The notes under the pieces are model-generated. The model ran no database searches. It saw only the letters and a program-made list of their open reading frames with translations, and was not told the origin of the DNA. Below, one piece after another: positions 7,954 to 63,657 of a stretch of DNA of 64,000 bases; the first letter of the stretch is position 1, and each line of letters begins with the position of its first letter. The position numbers were made by a program, and so were the translations under genes. The DNA is from Thermoplasmatota archaeon (GTDB lineage Archaea > Thermoplasmatota > E2 > DHVEG-1): positions 558-64,557 of the forward strand of contig JAWOGM010000054.1 of the NCBI GenBank assembly GCA_046496795.1, written 5' to 3'.

Positions 7954-8781
7954 CTATACATCCAATATTACAGAGACTTTATTTTTTAAATTAGATATAA
8001 TTTCATCTGATCTTTTTGGCGTTAAAGAAAGCCGTCTCATCGGTTTTAATAATTCAGCAATCCTTTGTGTCGATACCTCCCAAGAATGTACTTGCTTTGA
8101 AACCTGCAACGCTTTCCCATATTGTGCTGGATCATACATCATAATATGCCCTGGCTCAATAGCCAAAACGACATCAAAATGATGCAACCCATTCCAGGGC
8201 AAAAGGGCTTGATCGGCATAACTTTCGATTACAATAAAATCAAATTTTTTCTCTATTGCTTGATACGTATTTACCAAGGCTTTGTGATAATATTTCTGCG
8301 TTAGTTTATTTAAGGATTCTATATCAGAAATAGGCTGCGTAATATATGATTTTTCTACGATTTTTTTGAAATATCTTTTGTTGAGTTGTTGTCTATTGTG
8401 TTGATTTATCACCACAAGTTGTTCATTGTGCGATCCGCTCTGTAGGTTAATTCGATCCAAAATAAAATTAGGGAGATGAGTAATAGGATCAATGATCGAC
8501 GGTTCATTCCAGATGCGATGAATTGGATTTAATGATTCCTCACCAATGTTTATATCAGACTCTTTTTTTAAGAATTGCACATCTTTACTATAGATACGTC
8601 CTTGTTTTAGTGCTTCACTAATCATATCAAAATCATACCAGATATTATTTCCAGAAAAGGGTTTGAATCCAGAAACATTGAATTCTTCCTCTTTAAGATA
8701 TGAAATAACTGCCCTGGCAAGGGAAGTTTTTCCTGAATTTTTATTTTTTAATCCAATGATAAGTATATTTTGTGCCATCAT
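7954..8781 (-). CDS. P-loop NTPase of unknown function (DTB-synthetase/CobQ-like Walker A)
   Basis: Walker A 'GLKNKNSGKTSLA' near the N-terminus. No further family-specific motif recognised. Confidence 0.35.
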   Translation of the reverse strand: MMAQNILIIGLKNKNSGKTSLARAVISYLKEEEFNVSGFKPFSGNNIWYDFDMISEALKQGRIYSKDVQFLKKESDINIGEESLNPIHRIWNEPSIIDPITHLPNFILDRINLQSGSHNEQLVVINQHNRQQLNKRYFKKIVEKSYITQPISDIESLNKLTQKYYHKALVNTYQAIEKKFDFIVIESYADQALLPWNGLHHFDVVLAIEPGHIMMYDPAQYGKALQVSKQVHSWEVSTQRIAELLKPMRRLSLTPKRSDEIISNLKNKVSVILDV

Positions 8782-8873
8782 GATATTAATTGCAGTATAT
8801 AATGTAAAAATGTTTTGAAAAAATTATAAGATAACATAATTATATTAATCTTAGTTCAATTATTAAGAAGACT

Positions 8874-10355: not shown

Positions 10356-10371
10356 AAAAAAAGATTGAAAA

Positions 10372-11796: not shown

Positions 11797-11999
11797 GCTG
11801 AAGAGTAAAAAAATTAGTAGGATCGCAAATACATTTTGTCGTTTCTTTATGATAATTCCTCCCGTTTTAACGATAATAATATGATGATCTATATATAAAT
11901 CTTTGTTGTTTTTCTAAAGATTCTTTTCAAGAGATATATCAGACAGTAATCTATCAGTTAAAAAATAGAAAAGAGAGCTTATATCATTAGAGAACAGGG

Positions 12000-40700: not shown

Positions 40701-40881
40701 GTTCTTATTTCCCCTTATACATAAAGAATATAGAAAATGGTATTTATAAATTTCGCAAATTTTGTAAACAATTATTACATGAAAGACAAAATATTGAAAA
40801 AAAATAATAAATATTATAAACATTATGATTATCTCACTACAAGTAACATTGAATATAATTCGTAGGACGAAGGGAGAAAAC

Positions 40882-46800: not shown

Positions 46801-47136
46801 TTCTATACTGGTGTTCAATCAAAGATCTTTAATACTGGTTCCACAAATATTTCTGGTTATTTGTTGATACAAGTTGAATTTTTTAGCGGAACTCAGTTAA
46901 TATGGGTGTTGGATAATGATACAATCAATGAAACCACTCCAAGGACAATAAATGTTGGTGAGCAACTTGCTTTAGATCTGATATTCAACGGTGAAATCAG
47001 TACTGATGATCTTACGCATGGTGATGGAACGTATCGTGTGTATGCAGCATTCCGTGATCCTGATGGCGACGTACTAATATGTGATGATGAAACTTTGCTT
47101 GCAGCTTGGTATGAGTTTGAGGTAGACACCAGCTAA
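40882..47136 (+). CDS. Giant (~2085 aa mature) secreted surface protein with a gingipain-like (C25) domain, PKD-like domains and an internal tandem Ig-like repeat. It is extremely rich in N-glycosylation sequons.
   Basis: The likely start at 40882 is preceded by AGGGAG. Signal peptide 'MNNSCLNKYLKASILIGSLIILIFMLNSAQA'. 'YVLIGGDHNN...VPARFFKY...SDIYYSCLDG', His 'YMGHGDWDG' and Cys 'YSMGCLNGKF' parallel 27316..29202. PKD-like 'YTWDFGGSKG' and 'EWEWEFGDGNGSTDENPNHSFTSSGVYNVTLNVTD'. Repeats 'PPEISNVSHS...HSFSVS' and 'PPTISDVTDD...YSFTVS'. Confidence 0.6.
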   Translation: MNNSCLNKYLKASILIGSLIILIFMLNSAQATEIEMDFSFEEPDITELTISDETYHDVKIDGLKTTGDTGLPLLPVKTVKILLPQRGVLESIDVVLDGNTSMGQNYNVTLGKESVNLSGGQNGSNESYFNESIPYPTTSYDKIGVFHFRGHSFLIINLHPCYYIGETGEIYYYENISLTVTTNEVGNVSKFFRNTTTDEELIKEKVDNYDCISSYDTKVGFSKNSDLVDPQDSYDYVIITKKKFKNAICPQGFRFWYTFQDLADYKNSTGTQTIVVALEDILNEPEYHWDGEFGDGLNESIFNDTQCHIRNFIKDAFQNWGIEYVLIGGDHNNTLTDCDIVPARFFKYTEIHISKPSDIYYSCLDGNYNMDSDGDFGEKGDGGFGNGDNWEPKLGSGYCYAEADSSQYGGGFDVGLFSKELDMSNFSNVYLNFTWSFRSNYNAHIEVNVYSGGNDSENKEVTLWEKSTGSEIPDPMVLNFNPSIYTDPSEVYIEFNYTDSGSSSSDSMNIDDIKITGFDGTNWTVILNESFEGDPFPPDGWDQKKYSGEKEWAIEYYQIYPDLFAEVYIGRASVGNRFEVNNFVTKTLSYQKADAHDPYINKTLLLGARLNKKTWGGDYKDEIVDKCDNVFNSTGIPSENYTIDKLYDRDLSPDYWPKKELRRRLNNGVNIINYMGHGDWDGIGTKDYDGDFSWIDKFNIADVCLLHNNKYFFMYSMGCLNGKFHCWSSLPIFNITQCDSFAEFLTVRTKHGAYATIMNTGSGTFIPSSTNSSSQYFDRFFFNATFGGAEIKELGRANQESKENTLPLIYDLNVFYGLTLFGDPQISLKIPVENNPPNKPDTPTGYEDPDHKLFWTYYTSTTDPEGDQLYYKWEWDDVEGLVWWIPFLPYDSGDTASMIRPWLIPGTHKVRVKAMDIYGAESNWSDPYYMSVSFDLNMQINPNPAVVGETIDFNAESEYGETYTWDFGGSKGIKYGAQVTEDYDSVGEYEVILNVTGSENITSNATESVEIVLLRSEIGCSSNHAAPDETIYFTNLSKGYYEIKEWEWEFGDGNGSTDENPNHSFTSSGVYNVTLNVTDDEYNTDEFTVVIYVDTVPPEISNVSHSSEIIGYGTNITISAHVTDDISGIQLVCVNITCPDDNSENYTMNLTNDDNYECTFTNTWDLGIYNYTIWAMDNANNTNSSSGHSFSVSRSFGYTEIGASNQTIWDTITGSTFMVNEKCVADNLTVYINPGDATYDSHYQCMIYDYDDSELVGISDELNVTSGEDWVVFPFSEPKPVMILGVNYTLQCWSDNETLAMYYVNGTGYGQGQYFEGIYGYVPEDILFEYEDRRYSIYCSYSNDTIPPTISDVTDDPNTCGFGQTVNITAEINGTISGVDNATVNITYPDETLHVFTMDNTENDIYQCSFTATWLVDQYNYSIWAIDAYGNQNTSTGYSFTVSSNATIGVCTIKNIYGANESINITDPPVGSPFIGYELLDNDSVLHIWNKYDSYYFNTSSGLQLTNNYDEYWSHNVLMLGYYNNDQWNLMYRTDELSGFTKSIDSDNDTFVNATLWKDLTYGGYAFRLAIRYHLGVDDNELTIIPYIKNIDDEDIPYVLGFGWELQDIQIDMTETGDYIQLGNENYYLNQSLDNSYTNLSDPIYCFNEVTNETEICGYSDPAFYLMENITETTTESLYLRWDKDLTYKLEVKSRAGQYNAPVTLFVRIGTLNNGQEKSTDMFWYDADQYTYYFDSYDTKLDAWETNPSNMVDGSTSTFASTDIRDDSEYCDSTSFGYGGAPSGTVSKVEIRAYGKYEEIGGSINIKPTFNGGNGDNHYFSLPGSAGWSSWFDITDDTNAPEPWTWSDVESLDCSIIVCDIRQGDTFYCHKVEIRVTNNEAPVDNNPAPADDSINVSISPTLSINVSDAEGDSMNITWYSNSSGSWTSFGTNNSVGNGTYYQSFSNASVNGQWWYWKVNVSDGSNTLESSVYKFYTGVQSKIFNTGSTNISGYLLIQVEFFSGTQLIWVLDNDTINETTPRTINVGEQLALDLIFNGEISTDDLTHGDGTYRVYAAFRDPDGDVLICDDETLLAAWYEFEVDTS

Positions 47137-47469: not shown

Positions 47470-48762
47470 TTGAAGATCATCCAAGAAAACCTAATTAACC
47501 ATTCAACCAATCCATTTACAACCAATTCACATGAATTGGAAGGAGGCAATAATCAAGAATGGAAACAAAATATAGAAAACATAGGCCAGAAATATGTCAA
47601 ACAACCAAATCCCCAATTGGACGGGGAGGAGATGAATGACCGTGGCTATGTAAGACAAAAATTTGATGTTGAAAAATTTAAAAACCCATATATCTTAGAT
47701 CCATCCGAATACAAAACACAACAGGAATTATTCAATGCAATAAAATACTGGTGGGTATTCAAAAGACGGAAAAATGAAAACACGGTAAAGAAACGAATAC
47801 CAATGGCAAAAAGAATGAGCAAACATCCAGTATTCCCAATTAATTGGAAGGAACTAAACCCTAATCAAATCATAGCATATCTAGAGTACAGAGAATACAA
47901 AGAAGGTGCTGGAAAGAACGCGATACGAAACGAATGGGACACACTCAACATGTTTGCAAAGGCATTTGGTATAAACACAGAAACATGGGGATACACACCG
48001 CCAAGTAAACCACCGGCAAAAGTCAAAATAATACCACTACCAAACACAACACACAGTATCATACATTACAGATACTCAAAAGACAAATACACAAATGCAC
48101 TCTTTCAGTACATACTAATGCACGGCTTTGTTATTGGATGGCGACCAAGTGAAATAGTAATCCAGAAAGTACGCGATGTAAACATCGATGATGGCTACAT
48201 GATCATAACTGAGACAAAGAAACACAATCAACTAAGACAGATATTTCCAGAAAAAGACTTAATGATCAATCCAAGACGAAAATGTTTGAAAAACTGGATT
48301 GACAAATGGAGACCCAAGGTCGAAAACCAATACAGTAAAGACTTTTTGTATCTGCAACCAAACGGTAAACCATACACAGTAGATTACTTACGAAAGAAAC
48401 TCTCACCTCTCGTAAAAGAGGCATGGAGACCTTTCAGCCTATACACAATGAGACACTGGTGTGCAACAGCAAGACTTATCAAAAGCAAGACAGAGACAAA
48501 GAAATGGGACATATGGGAAGTTAAAGATTGGATGGGGCATGACAAAATTGACACAACCGAAGATTACGTGAAATATGCGAAAAAATACCATCGAAACGCA
48601 CCGTATGATTGGATTAAGTCCGTCCTCAAATTTCATGACAATTTGGAAGTGGAAAATGGGCTAAAATCAATAAACGGCAAAAAAACCTACGTTTCGAGTG
48701 GAAACAACAGGAGTGGTGAGTTACGGACGTGGCGGGATTCGAACCCGCGATTACCGACTTAG
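47470..48762 (+). CDS. int: Tyrosine recombinase/integrase (pNOB8-type, not split by integration)
   Basis: C-terminal catalytic boxes 'MRHWCATARL' (HxxR) and 'DTTEDYVKYAKKY' (Tyr region). The last ~13 codons are translated from the tRNA-Arg gene. Confidence 0.75.
   Translation: MKIIQENLINHSTNPFTTNSHELEGGNNQEWKQNIENIGQKYVKQPNPQLDGEEMNDRGYVRQKFDVEKFKNPYILDPSEYKTQQELFNAIKYWWVFKRRKNENTVKKRIPMAKRMSKHPVFPINWKELNPNQIIAYLEYREYKEGAGKNAIRNEWDTLNMFAKAFGINTETWGYTPPSKPPAKVKIIPLPNTTHSIIHYRYSKDKYTNALFQYILMHGFVIGWRPSEIVIQKVRDVNIDDGYMIITETKKHNQLRQIFPEKDLMINPRRKCLKNWIDKWRPKVENQYSKDFLYLQPNGKPYTVDYLRKKLSPLVKEAWRPFSLYTMRHWCATARLIKSKTETKKWDIWEVKDWMGHDKIDTTEDYVKYAKKYHRNAPYDWIKSVLKFHDNLEVENGLKSINGKKTYVSSGNNRSGELRTWRDSNPRLPT
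48721..48735 (+). repeat. attR: the 15-bp direct repeat TTACGGACGTGGCGG, covering the tRNA-Arg 3' acceptor/T-arm end plus 3 nt of flank
   Basis: Identical to 39663-39677. Confidence 0.6.
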
Positions 48763-48798
48763 AAGGCCGGTGCCTTATCCAGGCTAGGCCACACGCCC
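48724..48798 (-). tRNA. tRNA-Arg (anticodon UCU)
   Basis: Manual fold: acceptor GGGCGUG/CACGUCC (one G-U), D stem GCCU/AGGC, anticodon stem CCGGC/GUCGG with loop CUUCUAA, T arm GCGGG-UUCGAAU-CCCGC, discriminator G. Confidence 0.85.
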
Positions 48799-48803
48799 AT
48801 AAA

Positions 48804-48891
48804 CGCTGAGGAGGAGATTTGAACTCCTGATCCCCTTTCGGAGAACCGGCTTTCAAGGCCGGCGCGGTAGGCCAGGCTTTGCTACCTCAGC
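48804..48891 (-). tRNA. tRNA-Ser (anticodon UGA), type II with a long variable arm
   Basis: 88 nt. Acceptor GCUGAGG/CCUCAGC, anticodon stem CCGGC/GCCGG with loop CUUGAAA, a 17-nt variable arm, T arm AGGAG-UUCAAAU-CUCCU. I could not resolve the D-stem pairing by eye. Confidence 0.75.
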
Positions 48892-48945
48892 ATATTATTA
48901 AATAGTATTGTAAAAAGAGTATCATAAATTCTTATAAAAAGAATT

Positions 48946-50720: not shown

Positions 50721-52115
50721 CTACATAGGTGTTTTCTTCTTATCAATTATTCTTTTTAATTTCTTCATAAAAGTAGTGGTAATTTCACCAAGGCTTGAAT
50801 GGTCATCAGCTTCAGCAGTTAATCGGATAATAGGACTGGTATTGGATTGTCGTATCAAAACCCATCCTTTTTCAAGTGTTACACGAATACCATCTAAAAC
50901 ATTTGTATTATTAAACTCGCCAATTAATTCTTTTGTTAATTCATCAATAACTATACTTTTTATATCATCAGGGCAATTGATTTCTTCACGATTTGTGAGA
51001 TACATGGGAAGCTCATCAACAAGAGCACTAAGAGCAGCATCTGTTTTATCTAATACCTCGGCCATTTTAAGAGGGACAACAAGAGCATCATCAAATAAAA
51101 AATACTCCGGTAAAATAATATGTCCTGAGGATTCAATGCCAAGTCGTGCTTTTTGTTTTTTACCTTCAAGTGTTAAAAAAGTATGACCAACTCGAATCTG
51201 ATTAACCTGAAAGCCTAGGGGCTCAAGTTGCTCTTTTACTGCTTTTGAAACTTCAACATTAACAAGTACTACTCCTTTTTTATCAGAAATCCCAAATTTA
51301 CCAAGAATAATACCTGTTTGATCTGCTGATAAAACACGTCCCTTATTATCCACAATAACTGCTCTATCTCCATCACCATCAAATGCAACGCCAAAATCAC
51401 ATTTCTGCTCCCTTACTGTTTTCACCAATTCCCCCAGATTTTTTTCTTTTGGCTCAGACGGTCGCTTAGAAAACAATGGATCAGGTTCACAGAAAACAGG
51501 GACACAATCCAAACCTAGTGATGTAAAAACATCAGGTGCAGAAAGTGTCATACTTGCTCCACCACAATCAAGTGCAACTTTAATTTGAGAAGTATAAGAA
51601 AATTTAGATAAGAAAAAATCTCTATACACTTTTGAGATATCAATTTTTTTAACTTTCCCAACTGTTTGCCAATCAGCAATTTCAAAATCATCATCCAAAG
51701 TGAAATCTCTAATTTGTTCAAGATCATCTACAGAAAAACCAACACCATCACCATAATAAAATTTTATACCATTCCATTCAGCAGGCAGATGACTAGCAGT
51801 AATAAACGCAATTACCTCATGTTTATTTTGCCATCCAGCAAATAATGTTTGTCCAAAAGAAGTAATTCCTGTATACTGCACATCTATTCCAGTTGAAGAA
51901 ACACCAGAAATAAAAGAATAAAACAGTGAGGGGCTGGATTGTCTAATATCAGCGCCAACTGTTAGGTTTTTACCGCGTAATATTCTTTTAGCAAACGTAC
52001 CTGCAGCCTGTCCAATTTTAAAAAATAATTCAGGAGAAATATCCTTCTGATAAATTCCTCTAATATCATACGCTCTAAAAATATGTAATGAGATATCTTT
52101 TTGCATATACTGCAA
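50721..52115 (-). CDS. Phosphoglucomutase/phosphomannomutase family (archaeal GlmM/PMM-type)
   Basis: Active-site Ser loop 'TASHLPAEWNGIKF', metal loop 'FDGDGDR', sugar loop 'GIESSGH'. Confidence 0.8.
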   Translation of the reverse strand: MQYMQKDISLHIFRAYDIRGIYQKDISPELFFKIGQAAGTFAKRILRGKNLTVGADIRQSSPSLFYSFISGVSSTGIDVQYTGITSFGQTLFAGWQNKHEVIAFITASHLPAEWNGIKFYYGDGVGFSVDDLEQIRDFTLDDDFEIADWQTVGKVKKIDISKVYRDFFLSKFSYTSQIKVALDCGGASMTLSAPDVFTSLGLDCVPVFCEPDPLFSKRPSEPKEKNLGELVKTVREQKCDFGVAFDGDGDRAVIVDNKGRVLSADQTGIILGKFGISDKKGVVLVNVEVSKAVKEQLEPLGFQVNQIRVGHTFLTLEGKKQKARLGIESSGHIILPEYFLFDDALVVPLKMAEVLDKTDAALSALVDELPMYLTNREEINCPDDIKSIVIDELTKELIGEFNNTNVLDGIRVTLEKGWVLIRQSNTSPIIRLTAEADDHSSLGEITTTFMKKLKRIIDKKKTPM

Positions 52116-52162
52116 TCACTACTGCGTTATAAAAAATTGATTGAAAAAATAGTAATAGAAAA

Positions 52163-53191
52163 TCATTCTCCAATTACATTACCTATTTGTTTATTTGGGT
52201 ATCCATGAGGGATAGGTTGATTCCAAATAATGTTTTTTTCCAAACTGCTTTTTTGTTTTACCTTTTCATGATCACCAATAACACAATAAGTAAGATGACA
52301 ATCGTCATCAATGAAGCTATTTTCTCCAACTATGCAATGATCCAATACAACATTATCACCAATAGAGGCATTGTTAAAAATAACAGATGAATAAATGGAT
52401 GATTCTTTTCCTAAACGAACATTATCTCCAACAGAGGATTTAACTATTTCTCCATGAAGTGAGCAATGTTTGCCAATGTAATTTGTTAGTTTATTTTTTT
52501 TTAGTAAAAGTTGGTGTACATTAAGATAACTATTTATTCTTCCAACATCAATCCAATATCCCTCAAATTTGAATCCATAAAACCGTTTTGTATCTCTAAT
52601 TATTTGCGGGAAAATTTCTTTTTCCATTGAAATAAGACGCCCTCTTTCAATATAATCCAATATTTTATATTCCAAAAGATAAGCCCCGGCATTAATGAGA
52701 TTAGAAGGAGCATCTTCTGGTTTTGGTTTTTCAACAAAACCAGTCACATTTCCATCTGATTGAACATCAACAACACCAAATTCAGAAACATTATCGACAG
52801 GCCATAAAGAAATAGTTGAAACAGCATTATTTTTTTTATGAAAATCAATCATCTCGCTAAGATTAAGTGAACAAATGATATCTGCATTAATCACAAAAAA
52901 AGAATCAGTGATATGTTTTTCAGCAAATTTTACCGCCCCTGCAGTTCCAAGTGGTTTGGGTTCATCATTTACAATGATTTCTTTATTAAAAGAGGCTGTA
53001 TTAAAAAACTCTTCAATCTGATCTTTTCTATAGTTAACAGCTACAATAATCTTGTCTACTTGTTTTGGGAGCGATTCGACAAGATAGGAGATCATAGGTT
53101 TGTTAAGAATGGGTAATAATGCCTTAGCTCTTGTATAGGTTAAAGGACGAAGTCTTGTTCCAAAACCTCCTGCTAATATAATTGCCTCCAT
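52163..53191 (-). CDS. Sugar-1-phosphate nucleotidyltransferase with a C-terminal left-handed beta-helix (GlmU/ST0452-like bifunctional architecture)
   Basis: N-terminal 'AIILAGGFGTRLRPLTYTRAKALLPI'. C-terminal hexapeptide repeats ('SVIFNNASIGDNVVLDHCIVGENSFIDDDCHL'). Confidence 0.8.
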   Translation of the reverse strand: MEAIILAGGFGTRLRPLTYTRAKALLPILNKPMISYLVESLPKQVDKIIVAVNYRKDQIEEFFNTASFNKEIIVNDEPKPLGTAGAVKFAEKHITDSFFVINADIICSLNLSEMIDFHKKNNAVSTISLWPVDNVSEFGVVDVQSDGNVTGFVEKPKPEDAPSNLINAGAYLLEYKILDYIERGRLISMEKEIFPQIIRDTKRFYGFKFEGYWIDVGRINSYLNVHQLLLKKNKLTNYIGKHCSLHGEIVKSSVGDNVRLGKESSIYSSVIFNNASIGDNVVLDHCIVGENSFIDDDCHLTYCVIGDHEKVKQKSSLEKNIIWNQPIPHGYPNKQIGNVIGE

Positions 53192-54063: not shown

Positions 54064-55524
54064 TTACCAATATCCTAAAAACCTCCACCATACAAGACCA
54101 ACAGTTAAAAATACAATAATTCCTAAGACATTTAATATAAATCCGGGTTTGATAAAATCTTTTACTTCTAAATTTCCTGTTGCATACACCAGCATAGCAC
54201 TTGGAGTACCGATAGGAAGTAGAAATGCAAAACCACTCGCCATTGCAACGGTATATGTCGGAACTATTGGAGAAAAACCTAATTCACCCATAGATGATAA
54301 CGCTATAGGCAGAATAATTGCTGTCACCGCTGCATTACTCATGACATTTGAAAGAAAGACAGCAATTATTGCAAAAATGGCAAGAACAACAAGAGGATTA
54401 TCTCCCACCGAAGAAAGTAAAAATTTGGTAATAACATCTAACGTCCCTGCATGGGGGAGCACAAAAGATAACGTGATTGCACCAACATATAAAAATAAAG
54501 TGCCCCAAGGCATCTTTGATTCAACATCACTCCACTCTATCGTTTTTGTAGATGCTATAGCTACAGCTAATGCTACAGCAATAACACCCATACCAATTAT
54601 CTGCCCAAGTGTTGCCCAAGCAACAAAACCTGCTAAAAGAAAAAACAACGCTTTTTTTTCACCAATACTAAAATTTCCCATCGCCTCTATTTCATTAGAG
54701 ATTTTTTTACGAATATGGCCCATATCAATATTTTCTAGGTGAAACACTTTAGCCAATACCAAATAAGTAAAAACAATCATAACCAGCGCTACAGGCATGG
54801 TAGAAATGATCCAGCGAACAAAAGAAACAGTATCACCAGTATAATAGCCATAAATCTCAACAGCTAAAATATTTCTTGCACCCCCCAGAAACGTAGTAAT
54901 ACTACCAACAGATGTACCATAAGAAAGAGCAAGAAGATTTGCTTTACCGAAATTCGACCTCAGAATATTTTTTTGTTTAGATGCAGCAAAAATAATAAAA
55001 AGAACAGGGATAAACAATGCAGTTATACCATGTTCAGGCATAAGCATTGAAAGAAAAAAACCTATCAAGGTTACACCTAGTAAAAAACGACGTGGGCTAC
55101 TACCAAAATGATTCAGAAAATAAAGAGCGATACGTTTGTGTAAATCATGTTTCTCAACAGTGATTGCAAGAATAAGAGCACCCATTAAAAAAAACAATGT
55201 ACCCGATGAAAAACCCCTAAACGCTTCACTTTGAGGAAGGATTCCTAGCACAACAGAGCCCGTAATTATTAAAAAAGTGGAGAAAGTAAAAGAAATGGGA
55301 GCAAATATCCACATATAAATAGCTAAAAAAAGGATTGCAGCACCATAATAAAGCGGAGGCTCTTCAGCATAAAGATATGACAGAACAACCATCAATAAAA
55401 AAAGCAATAAACCAAAAACTAACTGAAATGATTTATTTCGAAATATCATATCAAGGTTAACATGATCTCTCATTTTCAAACTGAATGAATAAAAGAATAT
55501 AAAAGACTTTATTAATAAAACCAC
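54064..55524 (-). CDS. ArsB/NhaD-superfamily (CitMHS-like) anion permease
   Basis: About 12 TM helices with the internal two-fold repeat and Gly/Pro-rich re-entrant segments typical of this ion transporter superfamily. Confidence 0.6.
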   Translation of the reverse strand: MVLLIKSFIFFYSFSLKMRDHVNLDMIFRNKSFQLVFGLLLFLLMVVLSYLYAEEPPLYYGAAILFLAIYMWIFAPISFTFSTFLIITGSVVLGILPQSEAFRGFSSGTLFFLMGALILAITVEKHDLHKRIALYFLNHFGSSPRRFLLGVTLIGFFLSMLMPEHGITALFIPVLFIIFAASKQKNILRSNFGKANLLALSYGTSVGSITTFLGGARNILAVEIYGYYTGDTVSFVRWIISTMPVALVMIVFTYLVLAKVFHLENIDMGHIRKKISNEIEAMGNFSIGEKKALFFLLAGFVAWATLGQIIGMGVIAVALAVAIASTKTIEWSDVESKMPWGTLFLYVGAITLSFVLPHAGTLDVITKFLLSSVGDNPLVVLAIFAIIAVFLSNVMSNAAVTAIILPIALSSMGELGFSPIVPTYTVAMASGFAFLLPIGTPSAMLVYATGNLEVKDFIKPGFILNVLGIIVFLTVGLVWWRFLGYW

Positions 55525-55729: not shown

Positions 55730-56473
55730 ATGAAACAAGCACCTGCTTTTTCCATAATCATTCCCGTTCTGCATGAGAGAGAGAATATCAATACATTAAT
55801 TAACAATCTTCTCCAGGCCCCTACAAAAGAACCCATAGAGATTATAGTTGTCGATGCATCTCCCACAAAAGATACAATTAACCAGATAGCGAATTCCTCT
55901 GTTATAAAACTCACCGCGCAAAAAGGACGTGCACAACAAATGAACAAAGGAGCAAAACATGCCTCAGGTGAAATTCTTGTTTTCCTGCACGCAGACACAG
56001 AACCACCAAAAAACTGTTTAACAGAAATAAAAAAAATTATGGAAAATAAACAATTTATCGGCGGAGCATTCAGTCTTAAGATACAAACAAAACATAAAAT
56101 AATACAAATAGTAGCTGTAATTTCGACCTTACGATCTCAAATCACCCGGGCACCATATGGAGACCAAGTAATATTTATAAAAAAATCATTTTTCGAGAAA
56201 ATAGGAGGATATAGAAATATTCCAATAATGGAAGATGTAGATATTATGCGCCGTATAAAAAAACAAAAAGGGAAAATAAGAATTCTTCCACATCATGTCA
56301 TCACATCAGACAGACGATGGAAAGAAGAAGGACTACTCTATACCAACATAAGAAACACAATAATCATCTTCCTTTATTGGTGTGGAATGCCTGCAGAAAA
56401 ACTAGCTAAATTTTATCCCACACATACAACAAAAAGTAAAAAAGAACCCAAAAAAAGTAAGAGTCCACAATAG
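55730..56473 (+). CDS. Family 2 glycosyltransferase (GT-A), resembling the rSAM-associated 'transferase 2' (TIGR04283-like, from memory)
   Basis: 'FSIIIPVLHERENI', 'IVVDASPT' and 'FLHADTEPP' (DxD region) are GT2 hallmarks. Confidence 0.65.
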   Translation: MKQAPAFSIIIPVLHERENINTLINNLLQAPTKEPIEIIVVDASPTKDTINQIANSSVIKLTAQKGRAQQMNKGAKHASGEILVFLHADTEPPKNCLTEIKKIMENKQFIGGAFSLKIQTKHKIIQIVAVISTLRSQITRAPYGDQVIFIKKSFFEKIGGYRNIPIMEDVDIMRRIKKQKGKIRILPHHVITSDRRWKEEGLLYTNIRNTIIIFLYWCGMPAEKLAKFYPTHTTKSKKEPKKSKSPQ

Positions 56474-56565
56474 ATAAAAAGCACAATAGGATTCATCAAA
56501 TATAAAAAAAAGGTGATTCTATACAAACACAGAAAAACGAATTTGAACAACATATCATATCTGCT

Positions 56566-57480
56566 GTGCAAAAAAAATTACATTGCCAAACTCTTTCAAC
56601 CATTCAAATAAACCTTGGGTTCATCTGCAATCAAACATGTAAACACTGCCATGTTAGCGCATCGGCAGAAAGAACCGAACAAATGAGTTTAAAAACCATG
56701 GAAACAGTACTCTTTGTACTCTCAAAACTCCCCCATATTTTTGTAGACATCACAGGAGGTGCGCCAGAACTTCATCCGTATCTTGTAAAATTTCTAAAAA
56801 CATTAGAAAAACAAGGCCACCAGTTACAACTGAGAACAAATCTTACGATTCTAGATGAACCAAAATATCTCAACTACCCACAACTCTACAAAGCATTAAA
56901 AATCCAACTTGTCGCATCACTTCCCTGTTATCTAGAAGAAAACGTTTGCGCTCAACGCGGTGACGGCGTTTTTGAAAAAAGTATAAATGCATTACAAAAA
57001 CTCAATAACATAGGATATGGAACTACCAAAGACCTACCTCTCACCCTCGTTTTCAACCCTCAAGGTCCTATCCTTCCACCACCTCAAAAAGCACTGGAAG
57101 AAGAGTATCGAAAACATCTTGCTGAACAATACAACATTCATTTCACAAAACTTATTGCATTAACCAATATGCCCTTAGGGCGATTTCTTGAATCAATCAA
57201 AGAAAATAAACACCATTATATGAATCTTTTAAAAAAATCGTTTAATCCTCATACAATTCCCTCACTTATGTGTCGTCATCAAATCAATATCGGCTGGGAT
57301 GGAACACTATATGATTGTGATTTCAATCTAGCCGCAGGAATACCTGTCTCATCAACGGTACCACAACATATAGAAAAATTCAACAAAAAACAGTTAGAGA
57401 AACGAACTATAATGACTGGGGCACATTGTTTTGGTTGTACGGCAGGAGCAGGATCATCCTGCAGTGGATCATTAATATAA
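56566..57480 (+). CDS. Radical SAM protein with a C-terminal Cys-rich (DUF3641-like) domain; resembles the ArsS / TIGR04167 family
   Basis: 'GFICNQTCKHCHV' (CxxxCxxC) and C-terminal 'GAHCFGCTAGAGSSCSG'. The ORF ends with TAA and has no in-frame TGA. Confidence 0.7.
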   Translation: MQKKLHCQTLSTIQINLGFICNQTCKHCHVSASAERTEQMSLKTMETVLFVLSKLPHIFVDITGGAPELHPYLVKFLKTLEKQGHQLQLRTNLTILDEPKYLNYPQLYKALKIQLVASLPCYLEENVCAQRGDGVFEKSINALQKLNNIGYGTTKDLPLTLVFNPQGPILPPPQKALEEEYRKHLAEQYNIHFTKLIALTNMPLGRFLESIKENKHHYMNLLKKSFNPHTIPSLMCRHQINIGWDGTLYDCDFNLAAGIPVSSTVPQHIEKFNKKQLEKRTIMTGAHCFGCTAGAGSSCSGSLI

Positions 57481-57493
57481 AAGATAAAAAAAA

Positions 57494-58201
57494 TTGAAAT
57501 ATAGCATGAACCAAACAATTAAAAAAACAATACCATCGATAAATTGGTGGAAACCAGTTATTTTAATCATATGTATTGTTACCTTATTTATTGTCTTTAA
57601 TCTATCGGGATCTACCGAAAACCTGATAAATGTACAAGCATGGATAAAAAATCTAGGCGCATGGGGTCCTGTGGCATTCTTTTTCATTTATATAGGAGCC
57701 ATTATTGCAACAATACCAGGGACAATTTTTGGAATACTTGCTGGTGCATTATTTGGATCGATTGCAGGAGTGATTATAATTAGCATTTCATCAACCATTG
57801 GAGCAAGTATCACTTTTCTTATTGCAAGATATTTTGCAAGAGAACCAATTTCTCAATGGCTCTCAAAAAATCCAAAAATGAAACGATTTGACCAGCTCAC
57901 CCAAACCCATGGTATGATTATGGTCGCTTTTACAAGATTAATTCCCCTATTCCCGTTTACTTTGCTCAACTACGGGTTTGGGTTAACAAAAGTACCGTTT
58001 AAAACCTATGTTTTTTGGTCCTGGCTTTGTATGCTACCTGCTACAATACTCATCGTTGTCGGTTCTGATGCTATTATGCAAGCAATTATCTCCAGACAAA
58101 TCTCAGTTGAACTGTTTGTGGTATTAATTACTTCATTTATTATTCTCATTCTTACCGGATGGTACGCGAAAAGAGAATACAACAAAAAAACAGGGAAATA
58201 A
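57494..58201 (+). CDS. TVP38/TMEM64 (DedA/SNARE-associated) family membrane protein
   Basis: 'GAWGPVAFFFIYIGAIIATIPGTIFGILAGALFG' and 'RLIPLFPFTLLNYGFGLT' are family hallmarks. Confidence 0.75.
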   Translation: MKYSMNQTIKKTIPSINWWKPVILIICIVTLFIVFNLSGSTENLINVQAWIKNLGAWGPVAFFFIYIGAIIATIPGTIFGILAGALFGSIAGVIIISISSTIGASITFLIARYFAREPISQWLSKNPKMKRFDQLTQTHGMIMVAFTRLIPLFPFTLLNYGFGLTKVPFKTYVFWSWLCMLPATILIVVGSDAIMQAIISRQISVELFVVLITSFIILILTGWYAKREYNKKTGK

Positions 58202-58204
58202 ACA

Positions 58205-59353
58205 ATGAATAAAATAACAACCCAAAACCAAAAACCTACAGATACAGAAACACTTCATGCAAACCTTATCCCCAAGTATATTGACACATGTATCTGTTGT
58301 AATAAATGTATGGATGCTTGTCCTGTTACAAAACCATCATTTACAATCCAAGAACTAAACAATGCATCAAAAAAAATAACACCAGTTCCATCAACTATTA
58401 GAAAGTTTGCATTTAACTGTGTACAATGTGGAAAATGCGTTCCAGTTTGCCCTATGCAAATCCGCAGAGATTATATGATCCGTTACATAAAACACAAACT
58501 ACGCCACATAAAACCAAAAACATACAAACGATACCTTTTAGTAAAAGGAGTAAAAAAAACAGGGATTAAACGAATCGTACAAAATCTATTTATTTATTTT
58601 CGAAAAATTACAACGAAAGATCTTTCTGCATATATGGAGAATACGCCTTTAATACAAAACAAGCTTCTTTTTTACCCAGGTTGTTATATCTATTCAACAA
58701 CAACCATTCGCCAAACTCTACGGCTACTAAAACATGTCAGCTCTTCAATAAGCATTATTGGAGGTGTCACCAACTGCTGTGGAGGACCTCATCTCATTCA
58801 AGGCGAATATGATCAAGCAGATAGTTGTAAAAAAATATTGTATGAAAAAATAAAAACCGTCAAACCAGATATAATACTGACAGCTTGTGCAGAATGCCAT
58901 GAAGTTTTAGAAACAATAAAAAAGCAATATAATGAAAACTATAACGTCTTACATGTCATAGAATACCTATTACAACATATTGAAAAGTTTCCGGACAAAA
59001 AAATTAGAGGAGACATGATGATACATCCTTCTTGTCGATACAAAAAAGATTCTCCTCAAATGACTGCAGCAAACCTCACAGTCAAACGATTTGCAAATCT
59101 TAGAGAGACAAAAGAAAATTTAGAATCATGCTGTTTTCAATGGAACCACCAATTTGATCAACATAACACAAACCGGCAGCAAACATATCTTTCCTCAGTT
59201 AAAAAAAACGCCTCAACACTAGCCTGTGTCTGCCTCACTTGCTACGAAGAACTTAGTAAACAAAAAACAGACGTAGAAATAATGGATATTATACAACTAT
59301 TTGATGAAGCGCTCAATAATACAAACAAAGAGAGGAAAACATGTGAACAATGA
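58205..59353 (+). CDS. Fe-S protein with 2x[4Fe-4S] ferredoxin motifs and C-terminal CCG (HdrD/GlcF-like Cys-rich) domains
   Basis: 'CICCNKCMDACPV', 'CVQCGKCVPVCPM', then 'PGCY...NCCGGPH' and 'TACAECH...PSCRY'. Confidence 0.6.
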   Translation: MNKITTQNQKPTDTETLHANLIPKYIDTCICCNKCMDACPVTKPSFTIQELNNASKKITPVPSTIRKFAFNCVQCGKCVPVCPMQIRRDYMIRYIKHKLRHIKPKTYKRYLLVKGVKKTGIKRIVQNLFIYFRKITTKDLSAYMENTPLIQNKLLFYPGCYIYSTTTIRQTLRLLKHVSSSISIIGGVTNCCGGPHLIQGEYDQADSCKKILYEKIKTVKPDIILTACAECHEVLETIKKQYNENYNVLHVIEYLLQHIEKFPDKKIRGDMMIHPSCRYKKDSPQMTAANLTVKRFANLRETKENLESCCFQWNHQFDQHNTNRQQTYLSSVKKNASTLACVCLTCYEELSKQKTDVEIMDIIQLFDEALNNTNKERKTCEQ

Positions 59354-60053
59354 AAAAACTAGCTGTATACTTCTCTTCATAAAATACCCGAAAAAAGGAC
59401 ACGTGAAAAATAGACTTGCTAAAGATATTACACAAGAAAACGCTGTCAATCTTTATAAAAAATTTGTAATTGACATCATATCAACAGTTCAACAAATCAA
59501 AACAACGCTAATTTTATGCCATCATCCATCAACTATGTTACCACAATTCCAAAAATGGCTGGGACAACACCAAAACTATATACCCCAAAAAGGAAATAAT
59601 CTTGGAGAACGAATGACGTATTGCTTTAAATATGTATTTAACAAAGGATTTCAACGTGCAATCCTTATAGGTAGTGATAGTCCTGATATCCCTAAGAAAA
59701 TTCTCACCAACGCATTAAACCAATTACAAAAAAATGACATTGTAATAGGTCCCGCAACAGATGGAGGATATTATCTCATCGGATTTAACCAAACAACATT
59801 TCTTCCTCAAATCTTCGAAAGCATAACATGGAGTAATTCAACAGTATATAAACAAACAAAAGAAAAAATTGAAAAAACAAACTATCAACTTAACATACTA
59901 CCGTTTTGGAGTGATGTCGACACCATAGATGATTTAAAAGAATTTGTACAACGTAACAAAAAAACAGATTTTAAATCCTCTCATAGTATAACATACCTTC
60001 AGAAAAACAGAAAAATCCTTGAGGGAGATAATGCCACAACAACAAAAAGATAA
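59301..60053 (+). CDS. DUF2064-family protein (GT-A-like; the rSAM-associated 'transferase 1', TIGR04282-like from memory)
   Basis: 'CILLFIKYPKKGHVKNRL' N-terminal box and 'IGSDSPD' (DxD-like). A more plausible start is GTG at 59343, which gives an 11-nt overlap with the upstream stop. Confidence 0.6.
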   Translation: MMKRSIIQTKRGKHVNNEKTSCILLFIKYPKKGHVKNRLAKDITQENAVNLYKKFVIDIISTVQQIKTTLILCHHPSTMLPQFQKWLGQHQNYIPQKGNNLGERMTYCFKYVFNKGFQRAILIGSDSPDIPKKILTNALNQLQKNDIVIGPATDGGYYLIGFNQTTFLPQIFESITWSNSTVYKQTKEKIEKTNYQLNILPFWSDVDTIDDLKEFVQRNKKTDFKSSHSITYLQKNRKILEGDNATTTKR

Positions 60054-60456
60054 ACGAGAACATTTGTTTAATAATAAAAAAAATCTTTTAGTCTACTCAT
60101 TATTTATAGCGCTAGGTAGTGTCTCTTTATTTATTTCATTAAATATGCTTTATATTGTCTTCCAGGCATATCTCTGGAACTATTCTATAAAATATATTCT
60201 TAACTCTCTAACAACATCATTTGTGCTCTTATTAGCATGCATTTTCTTTATTATAAGTTGCTTTCAAATAATAAAAAACAAAACAAACCCATACAATATT
60301 GGAACCATTGGATGTATTCTTCTAATAGTATACCCCCTATATATACTATTTATTGACACATACACACTTTCTTTTTCATATTATGTCGTTTTAATGATAG
60401 GTCCTGCTCTCATTGCTTTATTTGTAACACTAACTATAGAAAGTGGGAAAAAATAA
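60019..60456 (+). CDS. Small 4-TM membrane protein
   Basis: Four hydrophobic helices. It overlaps the end of the DUF2064 gene. Confidence 0.35.
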   Translation: MREIMPQQQKDKREHLFNNKKNLLVYSLFIALGSVSLFISLNMLYIVFQAYLWNYSIKYILNSLTTSFVLLLACIFFIISCFQIIKNKTNPYNIGTIGCILLIVYPLYILFIDTYTLSFSYYVVLMIGPALIALFVTLTIESGKK

Positions 60457-61332
60457 CTATAACTCAAATTTTTTAATAATAAAAAAAGCAACGATAAGAA
60501 ATACAGCGTAACCAGATCCAAACGTCATATGCGGATTAACTTCAATTTCTACATCAATTGCGTTGCTAGTAAATAAATTTGAATTAATATCTGTTTTGTA
60601 ATCTGCAGTCGGGCTATGCAAACCAACTGTATTTTCAATAAACTGGTTATCCTCAAGAGAGTTATCATATGAATCACGAATATTCACACCAGAAAAAGAA
60701 TTATTTCTGAAAACATTTCCAATTATCAAATTCTTATCTGAAAATTCATACAATCCAAACCCATTAAAAGAATGATTCTTTACTATATTAAAAGAAAGGA
60801 TATTATTTGACGCTCTGCTAAAATATACACCACATTGAAAATTGTTCCAAATATGATTATCCGAAATTAGATTACCCGATGTTAATTCAAGACGAATGCC
60901 ATAATAATTCTGATAAATATTGTTTCCAATTATCGTGTTATCATTTGAATTAACTGTAATTCCTGCTAAGGGAAAAGTCATTCCACTGTTTATTATAGTA
61001 AAACCAGAAACCATACAATTATCTGATTGAAGAAGTACAACATTCTTATGACCACCACCATTAATAATTGTTGTTTCTTTATCCTCCCCCATAAGAAGAA
61101 CAGATATATTCACTATTATATTTTCATAATAAGTGCCTGCGTAAACATAAATAACATCCCCTTTGAAGGCATTGTTTAATGCATCCTGAATAGAGCTATA
61201 ATTACCATCACCACTGCCGCCTACAAACAGCGTTGTATTTGCAGATGCAAAACCAAGTATAGACATGCTGCAAACACAAAACATAATAAATACCATTAGA
61301 ATAATAATCCTATAATAAATCGTTTTTTTCAT
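60457..61332 (-). CDS. Secreted right-handed parallel beta-helix (PbH1/NosD-like) repeat protein with a C-terminal TM anchor
   Basis: Signal peptide, then repeated 'N(x)I(x)NN..G(I/V)' coils ('IIGNNIYQNYYGIRL','ISDNHIWNNFQCGVYF','LSFNIVKNHSFNGFGL'). C-terminal 'YAVFLIVAFFIIKKFEL'. Confidence 0.55.
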   Translation of the reverse strand: MKKTIYYRIIILMVFIMFCVCSMSILGFASANTTLFVGGSGDGNYSSIQDALNNAFKGDVIYVYAGTYYENIIVNISVLLMGEDKETTIINGGGHKNVVLLQSDNCMVSGFTIINSGMTFPLAGITVNSNDNTIIGNNIYQNYYGIRLELTSGNLISDNHIWNNFQCGVYFSRASNNILSFNIVKNHSFNGFGLYEFSDKNLIIGNVFRNNSFSGVNIRDSYDNSLEDNQFIENTVGLHSPTADYKTDINSNLFTSNAIDVEIEVNPHMTFGSGYAVFLIVAFFIIKKFEL

Positions 61333-61441
61333 CTCAAAACAATAGTGATATCATTTAATTTATCTAATAAGTTTTTTGCAAAACAGAAGATATTTATTAC
61401 AAAATTGTAATTAAGAAAAAAAGCAATATGGTGATATAATT

Positions 61442-61777
61442 ATGAAAACAACAATTATTCTACATAGTGAATCGCTTGGTAAAGGTGATGAAAAACTTGG
61501 AAAAATATTAATGGCATCGTTTCTCAGAAAGCTTTGGGGTTTACAGAAAAAACCGGACGTTATGATCTTTTATAACTCAGCAGTAAATCTACTTACCGAT
61601 ACTTCCTCGGTTTTAGATGCATTAGATGCTTTGTCAAAAGATGGAGTTGATCTTATTGGATGTAAAACATGTATTGGATTTTATAACATTGAACAAAAAC
61701 TTTCAATAGGGCGTATGGTTGATATGCAAGAAATCGTTTCATTACTAATGAAATCAGATCGTGTTATAACTCCTTAG
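61442..61777 (+). CDS. DsrE/DsrF-like (YedF/TusD-fold) small protein
   Basis: 'TTIILHSESLGKGDEKLGKILM...DLIGCKTCIGFYN' has the topology and conserved Cys typical of the DsrE-like family. Confidence 0.5.
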   Translation: MKTTIILHSESLGKGDEKLGKILMASFLRKLWGLQKKPDVMIFYNSAVNLLTDTSSVLDALDALSKDGVDLIGCKTCIGFYNIEQKLSIGRMVDMQEIVSLLMKSDRVITP

Positions 61778-63657
61778 AAAAACTTCCAAAGCCTTATTTC
61801 ATTGCTCATACTCTCTGTAGAGTCATAATAGGCAACTATCTTTATAGTCTGTCTAAAAAACGAAGGAACATCCCAAGACCATATATAAGGAGCTTCTGTT
61901 TCTATGTGCTGTAATTTATTATTCTGATAAAACTCGACTTTTTCAACTGTTTGCACATTACCTCTGATTTGTGCTTCCACATCGATATTTCCAATTATCA
62001 GGGTAAATGGAAACCAACCAATCGTATCACCACGAACATACCCATGATTCTCTAAAGGATTGGAAATTACAATTCCGGGACTTGCATACTGCTCACCAGA
62101 GGTCTGAAAATCTATACCGTCTCCCTCTAGACCCAAGTAGCGTTGCGAGGAAAAGATATCCACACTTGCATCCCAATGCTCATGAACACCAAGACTTTCA
62201 GAGAGAAAAACACCATTATTCTCAGGATCATACACGTTTAATTGTGGCTCAGCTGCCTGATGGAGATAATTTTGAGAACCCTCGCTAGGATTTGTTCCTT
62301 CAGCATATAAAAAATCATACATCACTGAGTCAAGAGCAACAGGATCCTGCGAAATAAATAAACTATTTGTCCAATCATCATTAAACGGATACATCAAAAA
62401 CCGTGCAATAGTTTTATGATCAATCTTTGTGCCATAGAGCGCATCACCAATATACAAAAGTGTTTTTCCTCCGAGATGTTCATGCGCCAGGAGATCAACC
62501 TGAGGCGCAGGATTACCCATAATCAAGCCTGACTCATGATAGGGATGTAGATCAGCAACTCTTTCCATAAAAGAGCCGAAATGATTCTTCCCTGAAAATG
62601 TTACACCCATGCTTATAGGATGACGCTTTAATAAGGGAATGTTAATGAAATATTTTGCCTCCACAACACATGTTGGAAGAGTACGAATTAAACCATCGGC
62701 AAAATGTATCTTCTCATTACTTGCAGTTGCTTTTTCTCTTCGCGAGGCACCACCTGTTGAATCAACAAAGTTAACATCAGGGAATTCATCAACAAGTGGA
62801 AACGAAGGATATGTTTCATATCGAATGCGGTTATAAAACCAATTTGGTATAGGCCGAGATGCATCAAAAAGTGTGATATCTTCTTGCGATACTCCAACGA
62901 CATAAACAAGTTGACGTAATAATGCTTTAACTAAATGTGGACTTGCATCTCTATCATTAGTTCTTCTTATATATGGATTGCCAAAAAGAACGTAGGCATT
63001 ATTCATATTCAATTTAATAACTATCTTTTCCCCAGGTTCATATCCAGCCTCACCAAACCCCTTTTCGACATTAAAATAGGTAAAGATTACATCCCACGCC
63101 TCAGCATCATCTGTGACGCCAGCATATTGCCTAATACCATCAGAAAGCATCTGATCAATAACTGTTTGGTTGTTGTTATGTGATTGCCACCAGAATCCTT
63201 GTAAATTTCTCTGAGTAGCATGAGGATTCCAAGCCCATACAACCCGCCCAGGTGATGCACCAGTTGGTATTCCTATCGGTTGAATTGAGATAGGATCCCA
63301 AGAGCTAAGACTGGTTTGATTTGATTGGAAAGGAAATGTAGCAAAAACTACGCCAGAAATCGTAAATAAAATAATAAAAACTGTAAATAAAGCAGGTACA
63401 GTTTTAGCCCATTTTGTTTTCACGTTTCTTATCCAGACAAAAAGACCAGAAAAAAGAACCCCCCAAAACGCAATATAGCCTATTGCAACAGATATAGCAA
63501 CCTGCTGACAGGGATATCGAGCGCGTGTAGGATTAGGAATAACTCGTACAAGAAACCAAATAATTGCAATCAATCCAGCAAGGTGAAACCATAAGCCTCT
63601 CCAGTTCTTCATTCTCTGCCATAGCGATATCTTTTCATCGCAATGATGTATCTTCAT
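61774..63657 (-). CDS. Large membrane-anchored extracytoplasmic protein of unknown function (possibly a DUF362-like core)
   Basis: Three N-terminal TM helices, then a ~530-aa soluble domain. The DUF362 assignment is a weak guess resting only on the 'KIVIKLNMN' motif. Confidence 0.35.
   Translation of the reverse strand: MKIHHCDEKISLWQRMKNWRGLWFHLAGLIAIIWFLVRVIPNPTRARYPCQQVAISVAIGYIAFWGVLFSGLFVWIRNVKTKWAKTVPALFTVFIILFTISGVVFATFPFQSNQTSLSSWDPISIQPIGIPTGASPGRVVWAWNPHATQRNLQGFWWQSHNNNQTVIDQMLSDGIRQYAGVTDDAEAWDVIFTYFNVEKGFGEAGYEPGEKIVIKLNMNNAYVLFGNPYIRRTNDRDASPHLVKALLRQLVYVVGVSQEDITLFDASRPIPNWFYNRIRYETYPSFPLVDEFPDVNFVDSTGGASRREKATASNEKIHFADGLIRTLPTCVVEAKYFINIPLLKRHPISMGVTFSGKNHFGSFMERVADLHPYHESGLIMGNPAPQVDLLAHEHLGGKTLLYIGDALYGTKIDHKTIARFLMYPFNDDWTNSLFISQDPVALDSVMYDFLYAEGTNPSEGSQNYLHQAAEPQLNVYDPENNGVFLSESLGVHEHWDASVDIFSSQRYLGLEGDGIDFQTSGEQYASPGIVISNPLENHGYVRGDTIGWFPFTLIIGNIDVEAQIRGNVQTVEKVEFYQNNKLQHIETEAPYIWSWDVPSFFRQTIKIVAYYDSTESMSNEIRLWKFF

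Follow-up and report, generated by a model that had tools for sequence, protein, structure and literature searches.

The window analysed here, a stretch of 64,000 nucleotides (64 kb) from a sediment-type Thermoplasmatota archaeon, carries at positions 55730–61777 an eight-gene block built around an ArsS-family enzyme of the radical S-adenosylmethionine (SAM) type. The block comprises, in this order, a GT-A family 2 glycosyltransferase (GT2), ArsS, a VTT/DedA (TVP38/TMEM64-type) integral membrane protein, an HdrD-like iron-sulfur (Fe-S) protein with CCG domains (hereafter CCG protein), a DUF2064 transferase, a small membrane protein, a NosD-like protein encoded on the opposite strand and a DsrE-like protein. 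In our judgement it probably encodes an ArsS-type organoarsenical pathway equipped with a membrane-bound accessory module of the disulfide-reductase type, whose substrate we infer. The cluster is of a known kind and is already annotated as such; what is new is the conserved redox/membrane module together with three further lineage-specific genes. The five plus-strand open reading frames (ORFs) listed in the first-pass annotation (55730–60053) are all present at the coordinates given there, tightly packed or overlapping, but the frame of the radical SAM gene runs further upstream, to 56521, and the block extends further downstream, to 61777, than had been proposed.

The radical SAM gene (56521–57480, plus strand; annotated start GTG 56566) codes for a protein that, translated from 56566 to 57480, scored 398.6 bits against TIGR04167, the ArsS equivalog model (cut-off 300), spanning model positions 2–303 of 303. 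Matches to PF04055 and, over the C-terminal Cys-rich domain, to PF12345 (DUF3641, 171 bits) were also obtained. The CX3CX2C motif is present as CNQTCKHC and the C-terminal DUF3641 motif CxxC...GSS[C/U] as CFGCTAGAGSSC, and six further cysteines, invariant in the ArsS alignment, are found in the window protein as well; the cysteines of the two motifs are likewise invariant there. Both this protein and the CCG protein have identical counterparts in GenBank, from a Thermoplasmatota metagenome-assembled genome, where they carry the names "arsenosugar biosynthesis radical SAM protein ArsS" and "(Fe-S)-binding protein", respectively. No solved structure of an ArsS relative was found, the search retrieving generic radical SAM matches only (E ~1e-4). 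When 13 ArsM-adjacent ArsS proteins were aligned, 83 positions proved invariant, at 78 of which the window protein is identical and at the other 5 conservatively changed; nothing in its sequence suggests altered chemistry. The reaction described for the family is the redox-neutral adenosylation of trivalent dimethylarsenic, DMAs(III), to 5'-deoxy-5'-dimethylarsinoyl-adenosine (PMC13598754), and the window enzyme would be expected, judging from its sequence, to perform the same transfer of a 5'-deoxyadenosyl group to DMAs(III).

The protein ends in CFGCTAGAGSSCSGSLI, with GSSC at the position occupied by selenocysteine (Sec) in other members, just as the first-pass annotation had read it. Since the Sec form of the TIGR04167 family is recorded as GxxU (PMC13188914), GSS-C is its Cys counterpart. 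The idea that Cys in place of Sec sets this locus apart was dropped, as an in-frame TGA was sought at the GSS-C position of 83 homologous loci and Cys was found encoded in every one of them.

The two transferases expected in such a neighbourhood were likewise recovered above the curated cut-offs, so that all three family assignments of the first-pass annotation hold. GT2 (55730–56473, plus strand), which adjoins ArsS on its upstream side, scored 247.4 bits against TIGR04283 (cut-off 182), a family that NCBI names "arsenosugar biosynthesis glycosyltransferase", and 69 bits against PF00535; its nearest solved sequence is the dolichol-phosphate mannose (Dol-P-Man) synthase of P. furiosus (5mlz, E 1.6e-7), matched in the catalytic domain only. 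The DUF2064 protein (59301–60053, plus strand), a CofC-like transferase of GT-A fold, scored 198.3 bits against TIGR04282 (cut-off 134) and 112 bits against PF09837, with 3cgx as its relative in the PDB (E 1e-54).

Between ArsS and DUF2064 lie the genes of the VTT protein (57494–58201, plus strand) and of the CCG protein (58205–59353, plus strand). The former matched PF09335 with 101.2 bits (gathering score 33.9) and is 47–55% identical to VTT proteins adjacent to ArsS in four bacterial loci (L006, L010, L012 and L084 in our numbering); no match to the model of the UptA flippase was found for it, and a bacterial orthologue reached 27 bits against a cut-off of 250. The CCG protein combines 4Fe-4S dicluster and PF02754 CCG domains, with two four-Cys ferredoxin motifs (C29/32/35/39 and C72/75/78/82) followed by two complete five-Cys CCG motifs of the form C..CC..CxxC (C160/191/192/228/231 and C277/309/310/343/346), and all 18 cysteines are kept across 24 homologues. 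Its AlphaFold (AF2) model, with a pLDDT (per-residue confidence score) of 82.6, found its best fold match in the PDB in mycobacterial EtfD (9ojn, E 1e-9, TM-score 0.62), then in LutA and HdrB (8rvy_B, 7bkb_B). The protein stayed far below the cut-off of all named NCBIfam models, including TfrB (61.7 bits against 385), GlpC (31.7 against 278), LdhH (36.8 against 800) and NF045663 diclust_near_Sec (44.7 against 530). Its subfamily is small, with 151 clusters retrieved by a word-indexed search and 31 representatives at E<=1e-30 among 1.84 billion; a close relative occurs in Thermoplasmatales archaeon SM1-50.

Catalytic clusters of HdrB use all five cysteines of each CCG motif, whereas in EtfD one Cys is lost in one motif and a His is gained at the other cluster, its clusters being non-catalytic electron carriers (PMC13083937). 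As both CC pairs are retained in the window protein, a catalytic, Hdr-like disulfide-reducing site appears to be present rather than an electron wire. No gene for an HdrE-like cytochrome b was found in the block, where the membrane partner is the VTT/DedA protein. The VTT C-terminus that precedes the Fe-S domains is strongly basic, and the Fe-S domains of the VTT/CCG unit must be cytoplasmic.

The order GT2, ArsS, VTT, CCG and DUF2064 recurs in related Thermoplasmatota contigs (L001, L002/L003, L085 and L088). Neither of the outcomes that the first-pass annotation had named as refuting it, family scores under the cut-offs or a lack of synteny in other genomes, was thus observed. Identity between the CCG proteins of contigs sharing this order falls as low as 43%, and the recurrence of the five-gene order despite such divergence and despite differing flanks is far beyond chance. 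The VTT and CCG genes keep their place between ArsS and DUF2064, and the genes there abut closely or overlap. The arrangement of all eight genes is kept in L085, L088, L086, L090 and L002, save for the loss of ArsS in L086 and of DUF2064 in L090, and GT2 opens the block in L001, L002, L085, L086, L088 and L090. The flanks vary: a DASS transporter gene lies upstream in the window, whereas M20 peptidase, DeoC, LemA and M48 peptidase genes are found in the relatives, which argues that the eight genes travel as a unit.

To see which genes accompany ArsS, the ArsS alignment was used to scan one genome per species, and 80 loci were annotated by BLASTP and de novo clustering of the neighbours, the clusters being named with NCBIfam and Pfam; neighbour counts refer to 79 diverse ArsS loci. 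DUF2064 was a neighbour in 27 loci, GT2 in 21, the AhpD-like TIGR04169 protein in 14 and DUF547 in 8. A VTT protein was found in 14 loci and a flavin adenine dinucleotide (FAD)-dependent pyridine-nucleotide-disulfide oxidoreductase (NF004991, 849 bits; redox motif CLNVGC) in 16, the two occurring together beside ArsS in 11. VTT is a recurrent companion of ArsS across bacterial phyla, and what differs in the window is the partner of VTT. The two genes that had been described as inserted in the cluster are indeed real and conserved insertions, absent from the ArsS-DUF2064-GT2 loci of another Thermoplasmatota contig (L019) and of a Thorarchaeota contig (L020), but they are not foreign to it, since VTT recurs in the bacterial ArsS loci. 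Moreover, ArsM is also present in five loci with VTT and/or the oxidoreductase (L012, L014, L022, L040 and L068), so that these loci, like the 78 of 83 conserved positions, give no indication that the window cluster is distinct from arsenosugar synthesis. Of the pathway proposed at first, the membrane-associated, redox-coupled character still stands, though for an accessory module belonging to the ArsS neighbourhood and not for a pathway of its own. In one of the surveyed loci (L004, 9188–10716) the gene calls split the FAD oxidoreductase that lies between ArsS and VTT in two (184 and 302 amino acids); a selenoprotein was considered and rejected here, the junction resembling a frameshift or assembly error and not an in-frame TGA.

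A Fer4/CCG protein of the window type was seen only in Thermoplasmatota contigs. In the bacterial ArsS loci BLASTP retrieved none, and a scan for the Cys motifs retrieved one, in a deltaproteobacterium (UBA5205, L009), where a divergent Fer4-CCG-VTT fusion directly follows ArsS/DUF2064, with GT2 upstream. In a further contig (L091) DUF2064 and GT2 come next after such a fusion, and there the contig ends; the uncalled 1.1-kb gap upstream of the fusion gave no match to ArsS and no open frame. The bacterial Fer4-CCG-VTT proteins form a large family in anaerobes (Syntrophorhabdus, Thermodesulfovibrionales, Dissulfurispiraceae). Fusions of the order VTT-Fer4-CCG occur in the archaeal subfamily itself (P0137, 56% identity; P0363, 41%), and in L049 VTT and the Pyr_redox domains form a single polypeptide. 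These three kinds of VTT-reductase fusion, which cover both domain orders, and the adjacency that the genes keep are strong evidence that VTT and reductase make up one unit; they indicate as well that the Fe-S CCG protein takes the place of the flavoenzyme beside VTT, as a non-orthologous replacement.

It could be objected that VTT and CCG are unrelated passengers of the cluster, such as a generic pair for membrane homeostasis. The Fer4-CCG-VTT fusion does make up a large bacterial family, which also occurs in other contexts, and fusions of COG0398 DedA proteins with oxidoreductases are widespread independently of ArsS (PMC10127716). We hold this to be highly improbable, because both genes stay between ArsS and DUF2064, closely abutting or overlapping their neighbours, even where identity has dropped to 43%, VTT/reductase pairs recur beside ArsS in many bacterial phyla, and the fusions of L009 and L091 sit beside DUF2064 and GT2.

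No ArsM-like ORF was found in the 64-kb window, either by BLASTP (E<=1e-4) or with a hidden Markov model (HMM) built from 13 ArsM-like neighbours (E<=10), so that the lack of a nearby ArsM had been observed correctly. It is not a distinctive feature: an ArsM-like gene lies within 8 kb of ArsS in 23 of the 79 loci, the other 56 being without one, and its absence near ArsS thus says little.

While the family memberships, the gene order, the fusions and the exchange of the reductase partner are shown by the sequences, the substrates and the succession of reactions are deduced. According to the organoarsenical reading, the window ArsS would use SAM to attach a 5'-deoxyadenosyl group to dimethylarsenic in its trivalent state. 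The CofC-like TIGR04282 protein and the TIGR04283 glycosyltransferase would then act on the arseno-nucleoside or arseno-sugar, the likely route being nucleotide activation and then transfer of the glycosyl group to an acceptor. VTT and the HdrD-like protein would sit together at the membrane as a single unit whose Fe-S domains face the cytoplasm, an iron-sulfur counterpart of the bacterial pair of VTT and FAD oxidoreductase, in which the CCG protein may reduce a disulfide-type bond (S-S, As-S, or As(V)=O via thiols) with electrons that ferredoxin would donate and that would pass through the two ferredoxin clusters. The most likely purpose of the module would be to supply arsenic in trivalent, thiol-bound form to ArsS, or to keep it so, and the DsrE-like CxxC protein may serve as a thiol relay. 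Alternatively, VTT might flip lipids, for instance arsenosugar lipids.

Several observations weigh against this reading. Apart from ArsS, no arsenic gene was found in the 64-kb window, and we know of no biochemically tested member of TIGR04282 or of TIGR04283, nor of a VTT or CCG partner so tested. In one relative (L086, 5279–5484) ArsS has been deleted between GT2 and VTT while the remaining seven block genes are intact, the remnant "PVGHCFGCT", which holds the C-terminal ArsS motif GHCFGCT, being still readable at about 5400–5435; in another (L090, 11029–11142) ArsS is retained and the DUF2064 gene is gone from between the CCG and small membrane protein genes. These losses suggest that one sub-lineage is losing the block piece by piece, or that the block is modular there. 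Fer4-CCG-VTT fusions also occur without ArsS, alone in L093 and with YdjY and a MerB-like gene in L092, so that the module is a generic one, recruited to ArsS clusters rather than specific to ArsS. Finally, the ArsS reaction is redox-neutral and by itself needs no reductase (PMC13598754); for this reason a role in supply, e.g., in the reduction of pentavalent dimethylarsenic, DMAs(V), suits the module better than participation in the radical SAM cycle.

The L092 locus (8001–11970, Dissulfurispiraceae) has the fusion followed by a gene for a 221-amino-acid protein, a YdjY-family gene and a MerB-like gene of the organomercurial lyase family, with DsrC upstream. This context hints that the module may be tied to the handling of organometals and organometalloids more generally.

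A more specific form of the supply role would make the pairing of VTT/DedA with a disulfide reductase an unrecognised ArsS accessory module for the uptake of environmental DMAs(V) and its reduction to the trivalent form, that is, a dedicated DMAs(V) reductase, represented by the FAD enzyme in most bacteria and by the HdrD-like Fe-S protein in these Thermoplasmatota and in Syntrophorhabdus-type bacteria. We put this forward as a speculation that is quite unlikely to hold. We know of no gene established as that of a dedicated DMAs(V) reductase, and our literature search found no paper naming a gene for a methylarsenate or dimethylarsenate reductase.

The intact seven genes left in L086 after the loss of ArsS, and the absence of ArsM from the window, could also be read as signs of a membrane-associated, redox-coupled modification of lipids or glycans unrelated to arsenic, in which the ArsS-like enzyme would act on a different substrate. 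A small membrane protein is encoded in the block, as is a NosD-like β-helix surface protein; VTT/DedA has relatives that act as lipid scramblases or flip undecaprenyl phosphate (PMC10127716), the solved protein closest to GT2 is a dolichol-phosphate mannose synthase, and genes of phosphomannomutase type and for a sugar-1-phosphate nucleotidyltransferase lie 3–5 kb upstream. These upstream sugar genes, though, are not conserved beside the block in its relatives, VTT, reductase, GT2 and DUF2064 co-occur with ArsM in bacteria, and both the score of 398.6 bits to the equivalog model and the 78 of 83 ArsM-linked invariant positions kept speak for ArsS chemistry, which makes a pathway apart from arsenic unlikely in our view.

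The genes that complete the block downstream of DUF2064 were all outside the first-pass annotation. The small membrane protein (60019–60456, plus strand; 142–145 amino acids) is predicted to have four helices, its gene overlaps the 3' end of the DUF2064 gene, and no significant Pfam or NCBIfam family was found for it; homologues occupy the same position in related contigs (L085, L086, L088 and L090) and a nearby one in L002. The NosD-like parallel β-helix protein (60457–61332, minus strand) matched TIGR04247 with 101.5 bits, below the cut-off of 300, and has β-helix repeats between hydrophobic N- and C-terminal segments, being a probable surface protein; position and strand of its gene are conserved in L085, L086, L088 and L090, and the gene lies upstream in L002. 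The DsrE-fold protein (61442–61777, plus strand), of 111 amino acids, scored 110.1 bits against the YedF-type model TIGR03527 (cut-off 110) over model positions 85–194 of 194 only, i.e., its C-terminal half, the TusA-like N-terminal half lying outside the match, and 24 bits against PF02635. Its C74 and C77, forming a CxxC, are invariant in six orthologues, and the gene is present in L002, L085, L086, L088 and L090. An HMM search of 80 other ArsS loci retrieved neither the small membrane protein nor the DsrE-like protein.

With the DsrE-like protein a selenium pathway comes into view, in which a selenium species would be imported and reduced by VTT and the reductase, the DsrE-like CxxC protein would be its carrier and the radical SAM enzyme would make a C-Se bond. 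TIGR04167 originally came to notice as a family of selenoproteins bearing the motif GxxU (PMC13188914, PMC9312934), DsrE-like UxxC selenoproteins are listed in PMC13188914, an entry in the reference list of PMC10127716 links a DedA protein with selenite resistance, and the CCG protein (44.7 against the cut-off of 530) and the L009 fusion match NF045663 "diclust_near_Sec". The DsrE-like gene itself barely reaches the YedF "selenium metabolism" cut-off (110.1 against 110), but with the C-terminal half of the model only. We regard a selenium pathway as very unlikely: the known biochemistry of the TIGR04167 family is solely on arsenic, ArsM-like genes adjoin 23 of 79 ArsS loci, all 83 homologues have Cys and not Sec, neither selD nor another selenium gene was seen in the scanned parts of the window, and direct support is lacking.

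Some gene starts in the block call for revision. The ArsS frame is open from 56506, and upstream of the annotated GTG at 56566 it holds no in-frame ATG, GTG or TTG. The upstream codons nonetheless encode a conserved N-terminus, IQTQKNEFEQHI, where relatives read MPQKKNEFEHHI, including the N-x-F-E that is invariant among them. An ATA at 56521 aligns with the Met of ArsS relatives and is preceded by AGGTGAT (56511–56517), so that this ATA, and not the annotated GTG, is the probable true start; it would represent either a non-canonical start codon, a sequencing error, or a mutation truncating 15 residues including the invariant N-x-F-E. For DUF2064, the listed ORF, starting at TTG 59301 or ATG 59304, shares about 50 nucleotides with the CCG gene. 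The in-frame GTG at 59343, leading to a protein of orthologue length (236 amino acids) and to an overlap of 11 nucleotides, is the likely start.

Around the block, a DASS-family anion symporter gene (54064–55524, minus strand; TIGR00785, 218.8 bits against a cut-off of 198.6) is divergent from the GT2 gene; not adjoining the block in the relatives, it is probably unrelated to it. Further upstream are the phosphoglucomutase/phosphomannomutase and sugar-1-phosphate nucleotidyltransferase genes (50721–53191, minus strand). On the downstream side, a gene for a 627-amino-acid protein (61774–63657, minus strand) with N-terminal membrane segments, a DUF362 domain and a bacterial Ig-like domain is convergent with the DsrE-like gene, the 3' ends sharing 4 nucleotides. 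Elsewhere in the window, an ORF of 2103 amino acids (40825–47136) with a peptidase C25 (gingipain-like) domain, a propeptide and PKD domains probably codes for a large secreted or surface protease, and a gene of the phage-integrase family (47470–48762) abuts tRNA-Arg(TCT) and tRNA-Ser(TGA) (48723–48892, minus strand), a site (47470–48892) that could be the edge of an integrated element. An Rfam scan returned four tRNAs only, with no riboswitch or other RNA near the block. A scan for promoters and terminators gave counts at the level of shuffled sequence and was uninformative, the consensus being bacterial and the host archaeal.

To our knowledge, what is established of arsenosugar synthesis ends with its first committed step (ArsM, then ArsS). 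For the later enzymes, and for the makers of organoarsenicals in anoxic sediments, the block offers a compact, conserved candidate gene set in an uncultured archaeal lineage, and it points to the VTT/DedA-reductase pair as an accessory module that exists in two non-homologous versions, one with flavin and one with iron-sulfur clusters. It gives a lead for the COG0398 DedA proteins, whose frequent fusion with reductases has so far been unexplained, and for a small uncharacterised HdrD-like branch outside methanogenesis. Were the DMAs(V) reading true, organisms without ArsM could make arsenosugars or arsenolipids from scavenged dimethylarsenic in anoxic sediments; if the block serves plain arsenosugar synthesis, as the NCBI names imply, it would be an ordinary member of its kind with an interesting add-on.

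Among the systems known, ArsS of Synechocystis sp. PCC 6803, which with ArsM carries out the first committed step towards arsenosugars, belongs to the same TIGR04167 family, the likeness being drawn through the family model. The window protein shares with the Synechocystis type of ArsS the CX3CX2C motif, the Cys-rich DUF3641 domain and the Cys at GSS-C; it differs in its archaeal host, in the absence of ArsM from the 64 kb and in its setting within an eight-gene block with a membrane redox module. In Synechocystis, arsM and arsS are presumably unlinked. The neighbourhood known as "rSAM/selenodomain-associated transferase 1/2" (rSAM, radical SAM), which unites TIGR04167, TIGR04282 and TIGR04283, is found with all three members in the window block, as it is in L019, L020 and many bacterial loci. 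Compared with that neighbourhood in many bacteria, the window has neither the AhpD-like TIGR04169 protein nor DUF547, and has instead the VTT, HdrD-like, small membrane, NosD-like and DsrE-like proteins.

For the module, the closest parallel is offered by COG0398 DedA/TVP38 proteins paired with oxidoreductases (PF09335 with PF07992 and PF02852), in which a membrane protein of the same VTT subfamily is joined to a cytoplasmic reductase. Fusions of COG0398 DedA proteins with pyridine-nucleotide-disulfide oxidoreductases have already been described, with no link to ArsS mentioned (PMC10127716), and our literature search found no paper connecting TVP38/DedA with ArsS or arsenosugars. The reductase of the window is an Fe-S protein (2x[4Fe-4S] and 2xCCG) and not a flavoenzyme. 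With HdrD/HdrB and mycobacterial EtfD the CCG protein shares a ferredoxin dicluster followed by two CCG domains, with five cysteines per motif as in HdrB; unlike HdrD and EtfD, it has no cytochrome b partner (HdrE, or the membrane domain of EtfD), this place being held by VTT, and, as the host is not a methanogen, CoM-S-S-CoB would not be expected as its substrate. Lastly, the bacterial Fer4-CCG-VTT proteins, designated "YdjX (TVP38/TMEM64 family)/Fe-S oxidoreductase" by JGI, unite the same three domain types in one polypeptide, but in reversed order, with CCG at the N-terminal side, and with a CCG part only ~20% identical to the window protein.

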